8,946 nucleotides of DNA, from IMG/VR virus record IMGVR_UViG_2681813154_000005. One strand, 5' to 3'. The notes beneath the pieces were generated by a model. That model was not told the DNA's origin and made no database searches. It saw nothing but the letters and a program-made list of their open reading frames with translations. This document shows, one piece after another, positions 13 through 8,946 of the stretch; within the stretch, counting starts at the first letter, position 1, and every line of letters starts with the position of its first letter. The position numbers and the translations under genes were made by a program. This DNA comes from a virus (lineage: Duplodnaviria; Heunggongvirae; Uroviricota; Caudoviricetes).

Positions 13-414
13 TTAATTCGTGTACGTGATCTGGTACGTGATTTCCGCCATCGCCCAGGTGGCCATCTCATTATCACGTTGATAGTTAAAACCGAGTGGG
101 ATCATGGTGTCGATGAGTCCGGAAAGCACCGGAATATCCTTCATGGCCGGAAATATGGTGTTCTCCATCCACGTATCCAGCTCAGAATCCGGCGCCTGTG
201 CACGGACGAAAACGGCAATATGCAGAACAGCCTGCCAGTCGTCCTCATCCGTCATTTTTCCGGTGTACTGCGCATCACTCAGCCACACCGCCACGGCGGG
301 CAGTTCCTGCGCATCAATAAATGCCGGAAGCCCGTCAAAAAACGTGGCGCTGTCTCCACACTGTTCCCGAAGGCGTGCCAGCACGCTCTGACGGATTTGT
401 GTGTGTCGGTTCAT
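13..414 (-). CDS. U: tail terminator protein (lambda gpU-like)
   Basis: 133-aa ORF MNRHTQIRQSVLARL...ATFFDG...PAVAV...YTG...DSELD.WME matches recalled lambda gpU in length (131 aa) and motifs. ATG at 414-412 overlaps the Z stop (TGA 413-411) as ATGA. Lambda gene order preserved. Confidence 0.88.
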   Translation of the reverse strand: MNRHTQIRQSVLARLREQCGDSATFFDGLPAFIDAQELPAVAVWLSDAQYTGKMTDEDDWQAVLHIAVFVRAQAPDSELDTWMENTIFPAMKDIPVLSGLIDTMIPLGFNYQRDNEMATWAMAEITYQITYTN

Positions 415-998
415 TTACTCAGATGTAACCTCAGTTGTTGTTTCAGGGCATACCCCAGCTGTTTCGGCATTTCCGCAGCAATGATGCGGTCGCGGGCATC
501 TTCAAATGCCTGTGTCAGCGGTCCGGACATCGGGATTTTCACCACATCAATGGGGTAACGATTTTTGCCGTCAATACGCCGCATCACATGCCAGCGACCA
601 TTCGCCAGTTGCTGAATAAACGCATCCCGGAAAAGGTATTTCCCCACTTTCAGTACGCTGCCACGATGACGTGAGTTGCTGCCATGCCGGGAGCGGGCCA
701 GTCTGACCTGTGCGGTACCCAGCTTAATGGCGGGCAGGTTACCCCGGTTAACACGCATGCGGGCATACATTTTTCCTGAGGGGCTGGCTTTAAGCAGCCT
801 GACACGCTCCCTGACCGTTTTCAGGGGAATACCTTTCACCTGGTTATCCCCGGCAACGGTATTCTGCGCAACCTGCCGTGTGGCGACAGAAACAATCTTT
901 GCCGCCACACGGTTTACCGCCCATGCGCTGGTCTGTGGCACCATGCGGGTATCGAGGCTGTTCAGATTGCGGATGGCATTCTCAAGTCCCTTCATCAT
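411..998 (-). CDS. Z: tail completion protein (lambda gpZ-like)
   Basis: 195-aa ORF MMKGLENAIRNLNSL...NGRWHVM.R..GKNRYPIDVVKIPM...LGYAL..QLR matches recalled lambda gpZ (192 aa). ATG ATG at 998-993 preceded by GAGG. Overlaps the FII 3' end by 17 nt. Confidence 0.88.
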   Translation of the reverse strand: MMKGLENAIRNLNSLDTRMVPQTSAWAVNRVAAKIVSVATRQVAQNTVAGDNQVKGIPLKTVRERVRLLKASPSGKMYARMRVNRGNLPAIKLGTAQVRLARSRHGSNSRHRGSVLKVGKYLFRDAFIQQLANGRWHVMRRIDGKNRYPIDVVKIPMSGPLTQAFEDARDRIIAAEMPKQLGYALKQQLRLHLSK

Positions 999-3278: not shown

Positions 3279-3946
3279 TCATGGCATGGCCATGAGCATT
3301 TTCACGTCCGCATCACCGTCTGCTGACGTCTGTGGCACGCCACCCTGTACCGCTGCCGGTGAATGGTTCGCCATGNNNNNNNNNNNNNNNNNNNNNNNNN
3401 NNNNNNNNNNNNNNNNNNNNNNNNNNNNNNNNNNNNNNNNNNNNNNNNNNNNNNNNNNNNNNNNNNNNNNNNNNNNNNNNNNNNNNNNNNNNNNNNNNNN
3501 NNNNNNNNNNNNNNNNNNNNNNNNNNNNNNNNNNNNNNNNNNNNNNNNNNNNNNNNNNNNNNNNNNNNNNNNNNTTTTGCCTCATCCAGGGCCATAATCT
3601 GATCACGAAGTGAGGGTCCGGCATTCGCCTGCGGTGAAGCAGCCAGAATCGGACGGGCTTTTTCCACCGTCATCTCCGGCATCGCCGCCAGCGTTGCCGC
3701 CAGTTGTTCACGTCCTTTCGCCTCTTCACATGCCATAATGCGATCGGCTTCACTCTGCGCAGATACACCAGATTGTTGCGGTGCCGCCACGGCCAGAATC
3801 GCCCGGGCCTGCTCAACGCTCATACCCTGTTGCCCTGCCAGCATCGTGGCCAGTTGTTCACGTCCTTTCGCTTCCTGACACGTCAGGATCCCCATCACTC
3901 GCTGGTTCTCCTGCGCGGCAGCCTCCGTTGCAGTTAATTGCGGCAT
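3279..3946 (-). CDS. Nu3: candidate nested in-frame scaffolding protein (lambda Nu3-like), sharing the C terminus of C
   Basis: Internal ATG at 3946-3944 in the C frame, preceded by AGGAGG with a 4-nt spacer. The product begins MPQLTATEAAAQENQRVMGIL.C.EAKGRE, matching where lambda Nu3 starts within C (MTKETQ...SRIMGILNCEEAHGREEQ). Interrupted by the N-run. Confidence 0.45.
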
Positions 3947-4849
3947 AGTGCCTCCTGTATCGTGTGTGTTCAGCGTCGCAGCCATCACGCTGATGGCGTC
4001 CGACGCATTGATTAATTCATCCGCCAGTTCGGCCTCAATACCGGACTGACCTTCAAAAACGGCGGCCTCTGTTCCCATAACCGCATCCACAGATAAACCG
4101 GTATACATCGCCACTTTTTCAGCAAACATCCGGCGCGCCGCATCAATGCGCTGCTGCATGTCCTGGCGAACCTTTGCTGGCAGGGATTCAAACTGATTGC
4201 CATCCACCTTGTGCGATCCGGCGTAAATCAGCGTGATATCCACACCGGCCTGTGCCAGATGACCGGCATAGCTGACATGGCCCATCATCACCCCAATGGA
4301 GCCGATACGGGATGTCTGGGTAACCAGCCGTCGGGAGCAGGCCGATGCCAGTAACATGGCGGCTGAACAGGCCGTGTCATTGCACAGTGCCCAGACAGGC
4401 TTCAGCTGCCGGAGACGGTAAATCATGTCAGCGCAGTCAAACGCGCCGGTGGCCTGCCCGCCAGAACTGTCAATGTCCAGCAGTACGCCCCGTACCTGAG
4501 TGTCCGCCATTGCCTGCTGAAGACAGGCGACAATGCCGTCATAGCCAGTCATTCCGGAAAATGGCCGCATGCCACCCAGCCGGTGTACCAGCGTGCCGGT
4601 CACCGGCAGTACAGCAATACCGTTCACCACCCGGTAAACACGGGCAGGTCGTTTGCCTCCGGCCATGTACTCGTCCGTTTCAGCCAGCATCCCGGGAGCG
4701 TCAAGCTGTACCTGCTGTTGCGGTACCGAAAGGCTTGCTGCGCCCATCTCACGCCCGAGCGCGCAAAAGAAAACCCGCGCATAGGCGGGCTCCAGAAGCA
4801 GCGGCTCATTGAATGCCGCAGCGATAATATGTGAAAGATTACGTCTCAC
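3279..4849 (-). CDS. C: capsid assembly protease/scaffold protein (lambda gpC-like, S49/ClpP-like fold), interrupted by a 199-nt N-run
   Basis: The N-terminal 400+ aa (from GTG 4849) match recalled lambda gpC: AFNEPL.LEPAYARVFFCAL, NGIAVLPV.GTLV, SGMTGY.GI, GAFDCAD.I, KPVWAL.ND..CSA..LLASA.SRRLVTQT.R.GSIGVMM, ITLIY.GSHKVDGN. After the N-run the only protein-like frame ends ...AAVQGGVPQTSADGDADVKMLMAMP with stop at 3281-3279, resembling the lambda C terminus (AAGNPASDAVNDLLNTPV). That frame differs from the upstream frame, so the 3' end coordinate is inferred. Confidence 0.75.
3376..3574. other. run of 199 N (assembly gap or masked sequence) inside gene C/Nu3
   Basis: Directly visible. Abuts the third copy of the 150-bp tandem repeat. 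Confidence 1.
3575..3905. repeat. in-frame ~150-bp tandem repeat (at least 2.3 copies visible) within the Nu3/C scaffold region, continuing into the N-run
   Basis: cagttgttcacgtcctttcgc occurs at 3701-3721 and 3851-3871 (exact 150-bp spacing); ggccagaatc / agccagaatc at 3791 and 3641; gccataat at 3732 and 3591. The encoded units are RVMGILTCQEAKGREQLATMLAGQQGMSVEQARAILAVAAPQ, RIMACEEAKGREQLAATLAAMPEMTVEKARPILAASPQ and IMALDEAK..., the last cut by Ns. Confidence 0.8.
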
Positions 4850-6498
4850 GTGATGTTGTCTCCTCTTCCGGCCTGCGACTCTCCGCTATCTGCTGCTGAT
4901 ACGCCTGGGCTATCCACACCGGACGTGAGAGTCCGGCTTTTTCGCGCTCTGCGGATTCCCTGACCTGCTGGCGGAAAATGTCCTGATAATCTTCGCCCAT
5001 CAGTGCCAGTTCTTTCTCATACGTGCTCAGTCCGGCCTCAATGCGCATCACCGATTCCTGGACCTCCTTGAGCCCGTCAATGGCCATTCTTCCGGAGCTA
5101 ATCCACTCTGCCCGTGACCAGGCTGAACGCGCCTGGTAAAAATCAAAACGCGCCCGTGGCGGACGAATAATCCCCCGAAGAAGCGCCTCTTCCAGCCAGN
5201 NNNNNNNNNNNNNNNNNNNNNNNNNNNNNNNNNNNNNNNNNNNNNNNNNNNNNNNNNNNNNNNNNNNNNNNNNNATCTGCGTGGCCAGCCGGGCCGCAAT
5301 AAATTTTCGCCGCCCCATAAAATAGCGCCACGACTCATTGGCGGAGGCGCGGGCACTTGAGTAACTGACCTTCGAGTAATCACGGGACAACTGTTCGTAG
5401 GAAACGCCAAGACCGGCTGCAATATACCGCAGCAGCGCCTGTTCAAGCGCCGAAAATCCATTGTCTGAATCCTGCGCTGTCTGCAGGTTCAGCGCATCGC
5501 CAGGAAAAAAGGTGCGGAATTTTAACACCGCCCAGCGTCACGTTATTCGTGTCATACCAGCGGGTGAACTTCTCCAGAATATTAATAAGCGGATTATCCT
5601 GCTGACCTTGCGGTGCCCCCGCGATATATTCAAATGCCTTTTCGGTATCAAGTTCACTTTCGATTGTGGCTGCATACATCGCCTTCACAATGGCCGACTG
5701 AAGCTGCGTGGCCTGCAGGGAGTCCAGCATCTTCATCCGCTCCATTACGCTGTAAAACTGATTAGCCCCACGGGTCTGCCCGTCCTCCACCGGCTCAAAA
5801 ATATGCAGCATGGCCGGACGCCCGGTGGGAAGCTCACGCGGGATCCGCTCCCAGCGTCCGGCACCAGAGAACGGAAAATCATCCTCACAGATATGGTACG
5901 CAATCGCCCGCCCATACCGATCGACCTCAACCCCGGCCCGCAGAAAGTGGTTCCCCATACCGTGTCCTGGCGTGTCCACCCGTTTCGGACTCACGGCTTT
6001 AAAACGCGTACGGAATAACTGCGTGGTTTCCGTATCCCAGACCGGCTGCACAAAGATTTCGCCGTTAAAGGCATGCACGCCCACCCCTTCACGGATAAAT
6101 TCCGTAAACGTGCGTTTCCCTTCCACGTCGATCTCGCCAAACATTCCTTCTGCGTATTCCGACCAGGCTGCTTCCACCTCCCCGACAAAACTTTTTGCCG
6201 TGGTCTCCCGCATCCCCAGCCAACGCCAGTTCAGACGGTAGCTGATAAGAAACATGTGCCCGACGATATGATCCTTATGCAGGGCCACCGCATTAGCCGC
6301 GATACCGTTATTGCGCACCAGATCATCTGCCCGGGCATTCCCCAGACGCAATGCAGGCAACAGGGCCGCATCGGCACTCTGCGCCGGTGGTAACCACTCT
6401 GCCATTTGCCCGCCAAATCCTGCGCCGCCTCCGTTGTAGCTGAGACTCTCACGAAGCGGAACGCCGTTCACATCAATCAGGACAGGCGTTCGTTTCAT
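4839..6498 (-). pseudogene. B: portal protein (lambda gpB-like), split by a 1-nt frameshift in a homopolymer and containing a 75-nt N-run
   Basis: The N-terminal ORF 5443..6498 (NGGGAGFGGQ, GNARADDLVRNNG, HAFNGE.FVQ, FEPVEDGQTRGAN.FYSVME.MKMLD.LQ.TQLQSAIVKAMYAATIESELDT) and the C-terminal ORF 4839..5528 (PGDALNLQTAQD.DNG, LLRYIAAGLGVSYEQLSR, SGRMAIDGLKEVQE, IEAGLSTYEKE) together cover recalled lambda gpB (533 aa) but are in different frames. Removing one base from the A6 run at 5505-5510 (T6 on the coding strand) restores KIPHLFPGDALNLQ, as in lambda VPHLMPGDSLNLQ. ATG at 6498 overlaps the W stop as ATGA. Confidence 0.8.
5200..5274. other. run of 75 N (assembly gap or masked sequence) inside the portal gene
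   Basis: Directly visible. Confidence 1.
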
Positions 6499-6698
6499 AA
6501 CCTCACTCCCAGCGGTCGGCGGCGTCGGGTCGTACCCAGAACCGACTCCGCATCGTTGATCGCACGGTTAAGCTCATTCAGGGACGCTGCCGTATATTCG
6601 ATCCTGCGACCGTCTTTCTGTACCGACACAACCCGTTTACCGGTTAATAAATCAAGGCGCGCCTGACGCAGCGCCTGCAGTTCAGCGACTGTAACCAT
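6495..6698 (-). CDS. W: head-tail connector / head completion protein (lambda gpW-like)
   Basis: 67-aa ORF MVTVAELQALRQARLDLLTGKRVVSVQKDGRRIEYTAASL...RRRR matches recalled lambda gpW (68 aa; ...[24 protein letters not shown]...QRRR). ATG at 6698 follows the A stop directly; GGAGGAG lies upstream. Confidence 0.92.
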   Translation of the reverse strand: MVTVAELQALRQARLDLLTGKRVVSVQKDGRRIEYTAASLNELNRAINDAESVLGTTRRRRPLGVRL

Positions 6699-8609
6699 TC
6701 ACTCCTCCGGACAGCTTCGCTGCCAGTTCTTCAAGGGTCGGTTGTGCAGTTGCATCCTTGCGGGATGCAACTGCACAGCCAGATCAAGTTGCCAGCGTTG
6801 CACGGACACACGTAATGCCGCATAGGCATACACCAGGCAGTCCAGCGCTTCGTTACGCCGCTTTTTGTTATCCCACAACAGACGCATCTTTCCTTTTTCC
6901 CACTTTTCCACCAGTTCCTCCGCCACCAGTTGTTGTGCCTCTGTCTGCGAAAAAATCTCCGGATTATCAGGAAAGCGGATGGCATACGATGTGGCCTCAT
7001 TCACAGGGGTGGGATCGGCCTTCATTCGGGCATAGAGAATTTCTTTTGCGGTATCCGTCCCCACCTCACACAGATACACACCCCGCTGATTGCGGGTTTT
7101 CGGCATGGTGATCACCGGCTTGCCATAGACAGAGGCACCTTTTACCGGCAGTACCCGGAAAATACCGTGTTTTTTTGACCTCTGATACACGATTTCGCCA
7201 TCGATCCCCCCGATATCCCAGCAGACACGGGAAATGGTCATTTCGGTACCGTCTGCATGGCGGTATTTTTTATTGATCGCCGCATCCACACGTAACAGCG
7301 TCTCTTCCTCATCAGGACGTCCCATGATGATGATTTTATCCACCAGAAAGGCTTCCTCTCCCGGAGCCCACCCCCAGACATACATCTCAAAACGGTTTCG
7401 CTGCGAGTCAATGCCCGCCGTCAGATAAACCACCCGGACAGGCACCGTTGCCGTGTAAGGCACAACCTTATCCATCAGTACCTGGTGATCGAGTTTTTCG
7501 CCCACGGCCTCTTCCCAGGTCTCGCCCAGCGTGGTGTTCACAAAAGTTTTCACGCCGTTGGGATCTTTCAGTGCATCCAGCCAGTCACAGACTATCTGTA
7601 CCCTGGTGGTGAACGGACTGTACGCCGTCCATATATGGAAAGTGATGGAGCGCGGCGGCGGAATTTCATTACCCGAAGCACTGAAAAACGTCAGACCGTC
7701 ACACGTCCACATCCCGGTATTGTCACAAATCCAGCGCCCCCCGGTCTGATCAAGTTCAGACTGACGGATCACGCAGCCATTATGTTCACACAGGTAATAC
7801 ACCGTTTCCGGTTTACCCTTCTCCCATTTCAGGCCAAACGACGTCGCATCATCGCCAAACTTCAGATACTGCTCCTCCCCGCAATGAGGGCAAGGGACAT
7901 AAAACCGCATGAAATGCGCAGATTCATTCGCAGCTTTTTCAATCTGACAGGAGCCTTTAATTTTTGGCGTTGAACCGCGTATGGATTTTGGCCATACCGA
8001 ACCTTCAATACGTTTATCGCCAAGCAGTGTTGGCGAACCTTCTTTTTCCACATCCGGTTCAAACGAGGAGAGTTCGTCATAGCAGACCACATCGACAGAT
8101 TTTTCACGGTAGTTTTTGGCAGCAGCACCACCCAAACACCAGAACCCCACACCAGAGGAAAAACGCTTCAGTGTGAGCGTATTATCCCGGTGTTTCCGGC
8201 CCAGCCAGGGAGAAAGTTTTTTCAGGCAAGGAACATCACGAATTGTTGCTTCCACGTGAGACTTCATAAAATCTTCAGCAGCTGAGTCCGTCGGCTGAAA
8301 AAGAAGAGTGTTGCGGGATTTGTGCTCAATAAAATACCCGATCACACCAAGCACCATTTTTGTATAACCAACACGGGCAGATTTAATCAGGTTAACTGTA
8401 CGAATCTCGTCATTGCCCATGCAGTTCATGATGGCGACCTGAAACTGCAGCGTTTTCCATTCCCCCTCACCGTATGACGATTCTTTAGGCAGGTAATAAT
8501 TTTGATCGGCCCATTCTACAGCCGTCACCGGCAATACCCTGACCAGTGGCTGCAGTGCGATAGTGACTGCCACCATCATATTACTCAGTTGTTGTTCTGA
8601 TATATTCAT
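6699..8609 (-). CDS. A: terminase large subunit (lambda gpA-like)
   Basis: From ATG 8609 the product (MNISEQQL...TAVEWAD.NYYLPKES, 636 aa) is collinear with recalled lambda gpA (641 aa, MNISNSQV...) along its whole length: KSARVGY.KM.LGV, DNTLT.KRF, GFWCLGG.AAKNYREKSVDV, GSPT.LGDKRIEGSVWPKSIRGSTPK, CPHCGEEQYLKFGD, FHIWTAYSPFTT, TFVNTTLGETWE, YLTAGIDSQ, SKKHG.FRV.P.KGASVYGKP, WD.KKRRNEALDC. The track's 8666 start is a 19-codon extension inside the Nu1 overlap. Confidence 0.95.
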   Translation of the reverse strand: MNISEQQLSNMMVAVTIALQPLVRVLPVTAVEWADQNYYLPKESSYGEGEWKTLQFQVAIMNCMGNDEIRTVNLIKSARVGYTKMVLGVIGYFIEHKSRNTLLFQPTDSAAEDFMKSHVEATIRDVPCLKKLSPWLGRKHRDNTLTLKRFSSGVGFWCLGGAAAKNYREKSVDVVCYDELSSFEPDVEKEGSPTLLGDKRIEGSVWPKSIRGSTPKIKGSCQIEKAANESAHFMRFYVPCPHCGEEQYLKFGDDATSFGLKWEKGKPETVYYLCEHNGCVIRQSELDQTGGRWICDNTGMWTCDGLTFFSASGNEIPPPRSITFHIWTAYSPFTTRVQIVCDWLDALKDPNGVKTFVNTTLGETWEEAVGEKLDHQVLMDKVVPYTATVPVRVVYLTAGIDSQRNRFEMYVWGWAPGEEAFLVDKIIIMGRPDEEETLLRVDAAINKKYRHADGTEMTISRVCWDIGGIDGEIVYQRSKKHGIFRVLPVKGASVYGKPVITMPKTRNQRGVYLCEVGTDTAKEILYARMKADPTPVNEATSYAIRFPDNPEIFSQTEAQQLVAEELVEKWEKGKMRLLWDNKKRRNEALDCLVYAYAALRVSVQRWQLDLAVQLHPARMQLHNRPLKNWQRSCPEE

Positions 8610-8904
8610 CGAGTAAATCCGGTAATTTATCCCCCGCACGCGCGCACTGATTCGCTCCCTTAGCAATAAGGATTTTCAGATGATCAATATGACGCGGCGT
8701 TAAATCCGGGAACTGTCGTTGCATGGACAAAGGAATGGAGTCAAGCGTACTGGATAAAGCCATCGCCAGCTTACTAAGGGCAAAAATACAAAATCCGGTA
8801 TCGATAAGATTTCCTTTTGACACCTGATTTTTTAACTGCTGTGCGACAGCCTGTTCTGCGGTCAGTTCCCATCTGGCAATGAGTAGTTTGAGGTGTACTG
8901 GCAA
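8581..8904 (-). pseudogene. Nu1: terminase small subunit (lambda Nu1-like), C-terminal fragment lacking the N-terminal DNA-binding domain
   Basis: The ORF matches only roughly the C-terminal 100 aa of recalled lambda Nu1 (181 aa): ELTAEQAVAQQLKN...FCIFALSKLA...LDSIPLSMQRQFPDL..RHIDHLK...LLDEYI versus RLTRAQADAQELKN...FCTFVLSRIA...LDGLPLSVQRRFPEL.NRHVDFLK...LLSEYI. An in-frame TAG at 8916-8914 lies just upstream; there is no ATG, and the frame opens with TTG. Its 3' end overlaps the A start, as in lambda. Confidence 0.7.
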
Positions 8905-8946
8905 TAGCGGACACTACCATTTGTTCTTTTTTTAAGCAGCCATCTG
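8889..8946 (+). mobile_element. candidate left terminal inverted repeat of an IS3-family insertion sequence (element body lies beyond the window)
   Basis: Plus strand 8889 onward reads TGAGGTGTACTGGCAATAGCGGACACTACC.... This resembles, from memory, IS3-group ends that begin 5'-TGA and contain GCAATAGTGGACAC (IS3) or TGAGGT...GGACAC (IS600). Nu1 homology stops at about this point. Recollection only; not verified. Confidence 0.3.

Follow-up and report, generated by a model that had tools for sequence, protein, structure and literature searches.

The portal gene of the prophage examined here is divided between two open reading frames, and the question is whether this split is a genuine mutation, an error of sequencing or assembly, or a site at which a full-length product is restored by recoding. 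The window, a stretch of 8,946 nt from the IMG/VR record IMGVR_UViG_2681813154_000005, holds the head module of a phage-21/lambda-like prophage with the gene order Nu1'-A-W-B'-C-D-E-FI-FII-Z-U. The portal gene sits between gpW and the protease/scaffold gene C, as expected for a lambda-like head module. The features discussed below are collected in Table 1.

Table 1 Features of the window, with positions numbered from its first letter
Feature	Coordinates	Strand	Remarks
199-N run in gene C	3376..3574		134 real bases in otherwise 100% identical sequences
Gene C homologue (S49 peptidase/scaffold)	3279..4849	-	501 aa in relatives; start overlaps portal end; coordinates converted from locus L012
Downstream portal remainder	4839..5504	-	P332-T530 plus stop, in the original frame; without demonstrated start of its own
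75-N run in downstream portal	5200..5274		9 real bases, caggaaaac (+ strand), in otherwise 100% identical sequences
Upstream portal ORF	5443..6498	-	351 aa; 331 native codons, M1-F331, then 20 out-of-frame codons
A6 mononucleotide run (coding T6)	5505..5510	-	+1 insertion site; 5 in intact relatives
gpW homologue (head-tail joining protein)	6495..6698	-	67 aa, intact
Terminase large subunit (gpA homologue)	6699..8609	-	636 aa vs 642 aa in E. coli and other S. flexneri lineages
Perfect palindrome at the gpA -1 frameshift site	6744..6776		14-nt arms, GTGCAGTTGCATCC-TTGCG-GGATGCAACTGCAC
Nu1 remnant (small terminase)	8581..8889	-	C-terminal ~102 codons plus stop; PF07471 profile positions 85-163 of 164
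IS600 terminal ~57 nt	8890..8946		stands in place of the 5' part of Nu1 and everything upstream of it; coordinates converted from locus L012

The two portal ORFs, called at 5443..6498 and at 4839..5528 (minus strand, 229 aa, of which 25-26 are X from an N run), lie in different frames and overlap by 86 nt at 5443-5528. A preliminary description of the window had reported this overlap, and both the ORF coordinates and the domain matches given below confirm it. On the plus strand, positions 5500-5514 read ccaggAAAAAAggtg and include the A6 run; on the coding strand the junction reads CAC CTT TTT TCC TGG, in the context GTTAAAATTCCGCAC CTT TTT TCC TGG. The run and the junction were both found in the sequence as first described. 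The T6 run falls within portal codons 330-332 and the frame is lost after F331. Translation of the upstream ORF then passes through 20 codons without relation to the portal to a TGA at 5443-5445, and the junction peptide, which in frame would contain ...IPHLFPGDALNLQ..., becomes ...IPHLFSWR....

A profile search was used to relate the two ORFs to each other. The PF05136 (Phage_portal_2) profile was matched at positions 2-288 by the upstream ORF (228.7 bits), at 288-354 by the downstream ORF (80.4 bits), and without a break at 2-354 by the protein obtained after repair of the frame (326.5 bits), against a match cutoff of 32.9 bits. Because coverage of the profile by the two ORFs meets at position 288, they are the collinear halves of a single gene. 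No continuous ORF of about 530 aa spanning the full profile is present in the window, and one is restored only by the removal of one T. The product as encoded is without the C-terminal 199 residues of the portal, among them the last fifth of the PF05136 domain.

The portal gene was compared with intact alleles. A comparison with 5,426 complete E. coli genomes gave the prophage of E. coli CFSAN029787 as the best match; it is the nearest intact relative, is 99.9% identical across the portal gene, and has its portal annotated as one 530-aa protein. Together with the profile match, this DNA identity makes the family assignment unambiguous. The sole indel inside the gene lies at the mononucleotide run, with A5 in CFSAN029787 and A6 in the window. 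When one T was deleted from the window sequence, a 530-aa portal was obtained that differs from the CFSAN029787 protein only by G445S. The 1.6-kb gene is therefore separated from its intact E. coli allele by one 1-nt indel and one substitution, and relative to that orthologue the window carries a 1-nt change in a homopolymer followed by a premature stop; since this is a direct difference from an orthologue and not a statistical pattern, chance is not at issue.

The shorter run is general among E. coli homologues. Over a 121-nt query, all of the best 40 E. coli homologue rows were one base shorter than the window, as were all 59 rows that span the site in an evenly spaced draw of 1,508 E. coli records (88-99% identity). 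In both sets combined, 99 of 99 homologues spanning the site (88-99% identical) are in the one-base-shorter, single-ORF state. The repaired 530-aa protein and lambda gpB (533 aa) are about 60% identical and align over their full lengths, and in this alignment the earlier prediction that a five-T version would read HLFPGDALNLQ, collinear with HLMPGDSLNLQ of lambda gpB, proved exact. The gene for the phage 21 portal (gene 4 product) is 93% identical to the portal gene of the window at the DNA level. The order Nu1-A-W-B-C-D-E-FI-FII-Z-U is common to all three; unlike lambda gpB and the phage 21 protein, the portal of the window is broken after codon 331 by an additional T, and no full-length portal is encoded.

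The preliminary description had left two causes for the split side by side, a genuine pseudogene or a homopolymer sequencing error, and had taken the N runs as a sign of a draft assembly. The draft state was borne out. The two N runs stand for 9 and 134 real bases, indicating that they are wrongly sized scaffold gaps; that they could be 1:1 masks of the underlying sequence was ruled out. The run within the portal inflates the downstream ORF from 207 to 229 codons, and the excess length of the run in gene C is not a multiple of three, which produces an artificial frame change there. An extra A introduced by sequencing or assembly of such a draft, over a portal gene that is in reality intact, would accord with these gaps and with the presence in databases of an intact 530-aa version carrying the S. 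flexneri-specific S445 (WP_134799197.1 / QBQ21922.1), but the same T6 run is found in independent complete genomes, among them the Sanger-era genomes of S. flexneri 2457T and 301, and in thousands of other assemblies.

A 37-mer that includes A6 was matched exactly in two complete chromosomes, those of S. flexneri SFBU1023 and of a 4.44-Mb genome labelled E. coli ECMA0423. The exact 351-aa product has been deposited for S. flexneri 2a 301 (AAN42336.1), 2457T (AAP16213.1), serotype 5 strain 8401 (ABF04804.1) and 2002017 (ADA73063.1), and occurs on at least 1000 contigs. A gene index of public assemblies lists it in 2,587 blocks. Contigs exceed 1 Mb in 31 of these blocks and measure 5-10 kb in 2,146, as would be expected of short-read assemblies that end at the flanking IS elements. 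T6 was read in 12 of 12 related Shigella-type loci (L002/L003, L005-L012, L023 and L026, of which L003 and L010 are the same chromosome, CP178302.1); all eight long loci fetched, including AE014073.1 (2457T), have it. Two of the 12, the IMG/VR contigs L023 and L026, are 100% identical to the window outside the N runs and both carry T6. Outside its N runs the window shows no indel against 2457T across 8.6 kb, which further speaks against an error-prone sequence. The T6 run is thus reproducible across independent isolates and sequencing technologies, and all reliable assemblies of the locus have the indel.

The intact S. flexneri entries were also inspected. A 530-aa portal with S445 was found on only about 20 S. 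flexneri contigs, which come from CP037996.1, from Logan assemblies of the SRR31555xxx series and from SRR16936277 (loci L013-L022). Compared with 2457T, most of these contigs have lost single bases in other runs as well (G6, A6, A7 and T6), and most have a terminase gene that is broken into two to four called pieces; CP037996.1 has several insertions instead of deletions, and two shorter contigs (L020 and L022) have the T6 deletion alone. The extra deletions in other 6-7-nt homopolymers mark the T5 contigs as the error-prone ones and point to homopolymer under-calling behind their T5 calls, which on this sequence evidence are most likely errors and not revertants. Of the two causes first proposed, the genuine pseudogene therefore stands, and a sequencing error, for which T6 in the complete, Sanger-era genomes of 301, 2457T, 8401 and 2002017 and in the 2,587 blocks leaves a negligible probability, was rejected as the cause of the split.

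The split itself is already known, in that its fragments have been deposited as separate proteins for 301 and 2457T. Both genomes carry split 'head-tail preconnector gp5' genes (AAN42336.1 / AAN42337.2 in 301, AAP16213.1 / AAP16214.1 in 2457T), in which the 351-aa product is identical to that of the window and the 207-aa downstream fragment equals that of the window once the N gap is allowed for. In S. flexneri genomes the downstream piece is annotated separately, as a fragment of 207 or 137 aa. The IS600/Nu1 junction and the neighbouring genes of 301 and 2457T also match the window, without any difference of substance. In the window the 301/2457T locus is seen again, this time from a draft assembly. 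A literature search, with the 2457T genome paper outside its scope, found no published description of this specific prophage lesion.

Apart from error, the split form could have been retained because it is used. The T6 run might serve as a recoding site, with full-length portal made in functionally relevant amounts, either by slippage during transcription or by a +1 shift of the ribosome at CUU UUU UCC. Re-pairing of tRNA-Phe on U6 after a +1 shift would be perfect and would give back exactly HLFPGD, the two-ORF form is retained in thousands of S. flexneri genomes, and transcriptional slippage at a run of U's is used by Shigella at mxiE (PMC1088944). Like mxiE and the +1 frameshift of E. coli prfB, the window has a pair of overlapping ORFs joined at a re-pairable T/U run. 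Unlike those systems, its run comprises 6 bases and not about 9, it lacks a Shine-Dalgarno-like stimulator and a stop codon, and its arrangement is not conserved in divergent homologues, in which the ancestral state is a plain single ORF. In most bacteria, selection against slippage-prone A/T runs becomes evident from about 9 nt (PMC1088944), and the run in the window falls short of this length. By inspection, neither a stop or rare codon in the A site nor a Shine-Dalgarno-like element just upstream was seen. The flanks are one substitution away from the intact allele, which argues that no stimulatory element has evolved. The preliminary description had named conservation of the two-ORF structure in related genomes, together with a slippery signal, as an observation that would count against a simple lesion. 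Such conservation exists only trivially, in S. flexneri copies with 0-17 SNPs between them across most of 8.7 kb, a 22-SNP tract in gene U aside; because these copies are nearly identical, the shared arrangement reflects common descent. None of the 99 spanning E. coli homologues sampled had T6. A scan of IMG/VR with a degenerate pattern gave four hits, of which two were the Shigella-type contigs identical to the window, the only portals with T6; the other two matched by chance, in sequence that is unrelated and does not encode a portal. A restored portal would, moreover, be without a working packaging partner, since Nu1 and gpA are also damaged. Recoding to a relevant product is accordingly judged very unlikely, and nothing in the sequence points to a programmed use of T6.

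The truncated product could also have been co-opted; one conceivable role would be dominant-negative, with the fragment poisoning the proheads of superinfecting lambdoid phages during their assembly. All loci recovered have the same truncated ORF, and the prophage persists across S. flexneri lineages, but copies with a recent common ancestor are expected to be identical, and retrieval of the loci by exact protein match biases the sample. No sign of selection, new promoter or gain of a domain was seen, and the gene lies in the late operon, which in lambda is normally silent in the lysogen. Co-option is considered even less likely than recoding. Low-level read-through to a full-length portal, by +1 re-pairing of tRNA-Phe on U6, may nevertheless occur. 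Should a leaky T6 yield a little full-length portal, by re-pairing or by RNA polymerase slippage, or should the 351-aa fragment hinder prohead assembly of incoming lambdoid phages, the 'pseudogene' would keep a biological role in S. flexneri; we give this pair of possibilities very little credence.

The portal gene is thus, with high confidence, a genuine, vertically inherited frameshift pseudogene, and its split should be annotated as such. Variation among the loci bears on its age. The T6 run occurs together with the ancestral G445 in one lineage (L006/L008/L011) and together with the derived S445 in the window, 2457T and 301, indicating that the frameshift is older than G445S. Residue G445 is conserved in lambda gpB and lies in the portion that is no longer translated in frame. 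Four SNPs were seen in the portal gene among the loci, three synonymous and G445S, in a sample that is biased by the choice of loci by exact protein identity and with a divergence too low to show relaxed selection statistically. The extra T would have arisen by replication slippage, from T5 to T6, in an ancestor of the sampled S. flexneri lineages, and the allele would have been fixed by descent from an ancestral S. flexneri lysogen. Ribosomes would leave the portal frame after F331, read the 20 foreign codons and end at the TGA, and the resulting fragment would not be expected to build a working dodecameric portal. Portal function has presumably been lost.

The portal is not the only damaged gene of the module. 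The truncation of Nu1 mentioned in the preliminary description was confirmed and is explained by an insertion of IS600, which removed the N-terminal part of the protein, about 67 codons, and left only the C-terminal half of the PF07471 profile (Table 1). Homology to the intact prophage ends at position 8889 of the window, and the IS600/Nu1 junction near 8890, which can be placed to within a few bases, is shared by all loci; beyond the IS the lineages differ, with extra IS copies and deletions. The loss may have come before or after the portal frameshift. A 107-aa 'ORF' with a TTG start at 8904 begins within the IS600 end.

In the lineage of the window, the same prophage has also lost the native C-terminus of gpA: a -1 frameshift replaces its last 27 or so residues. 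At this site the palindrome is imperfect in E. coli and in another S. flexneri lineage, where it reads ...GGATGCCGCCAGCAC. In the window this has become ...GGATGCAACTGCAC, opposite GTGCAGTTGCATCC, by a change of CGCCAG to AACTG with a net loss of 1 nt, which resembles a quasipalindrome template-switch mutation. The C-terminus of lambda gpA is the part that contacts the portal. A further +1/-1 pair relative to the window, at 7884 and 8012 in gene A, is shared by SFBU1023, ECMA0423 and SRR16936277 (L002, L003/L010 and L015). These two indels are 127 nt apart and outside long homopolymers, split gpA into 201 and 397 aa, and probably represent further real decay in that sublineage.

Because Nu1, the portal and, in the lineage of the window, gpA are damaged, the prophage appears to be a decaying, non-packaging remnant that has been degraded stepwise. 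Against the pseudogene reading it may be held that the remaining head and tail genes are still called intact, with very few substitutions; these features indicate that the decay is recent. The locus resembles the IS-riddled cryptic lambdoid prophages of Shigella and E. coli, which likewise show an IS in a packaging gene, point frameshifts and lineage-specific decay. It differs from them in that most of its head and tail genes are full length and more than 97% identical to those of apparently intact E. coli prophages, which puts its decay at an early stage.

The lesion is ordinary prophage decay, with a T6 run common to thousands of Shigella flexneri genomes. S. flexneri is known for the accumulation of pseudogenes, and a further frameshifted gene in one of its defective, IS-riddled prophages carries little biological weight. 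The practical value of the result is for annotation. The rare 'intact' S. flexneri entries, such as WP_134799197.1, most likely stem from homopolymer under-calling in error-prone assemblies, and tools for prophage completeness that count 'portal present' will overrate this element.

Several other differences were observed among copies of the prophage. Compared with the window and most other S. flexneri copies, 2457T has 22 SNPs clustered in about 240 nt of gene U (window 192-429, L012 16070-16307) and none in the preceding 8.4 kb; this cluster resembles a short stretch acquired from another lambdoid prophage through recombination or gene conversion. Identity to the CFSAN029787 prophage is only 88% at positions 1-1455 of the window and 97-99.9% elsewhere, a drop that places a mosaic boundary near 1455-1631. 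In one S. flexneri copy (WACK01000005.1, L005 2321-3742), a group II intron-type reverse transcriptase (RVT_1 and GIIM) lies between the Q antiterminator and the holin gene, and is missing from the other loci of the same prophage. The 4.44-Mb chromosome CP178302.1 (L003/L010), deposited as Escherichia coli ECMA0423, has a prophage of the S. flexneri type, including T6 and the shared IS600 junction, and is probably a Shigella-lineage genome under an E. coli label.
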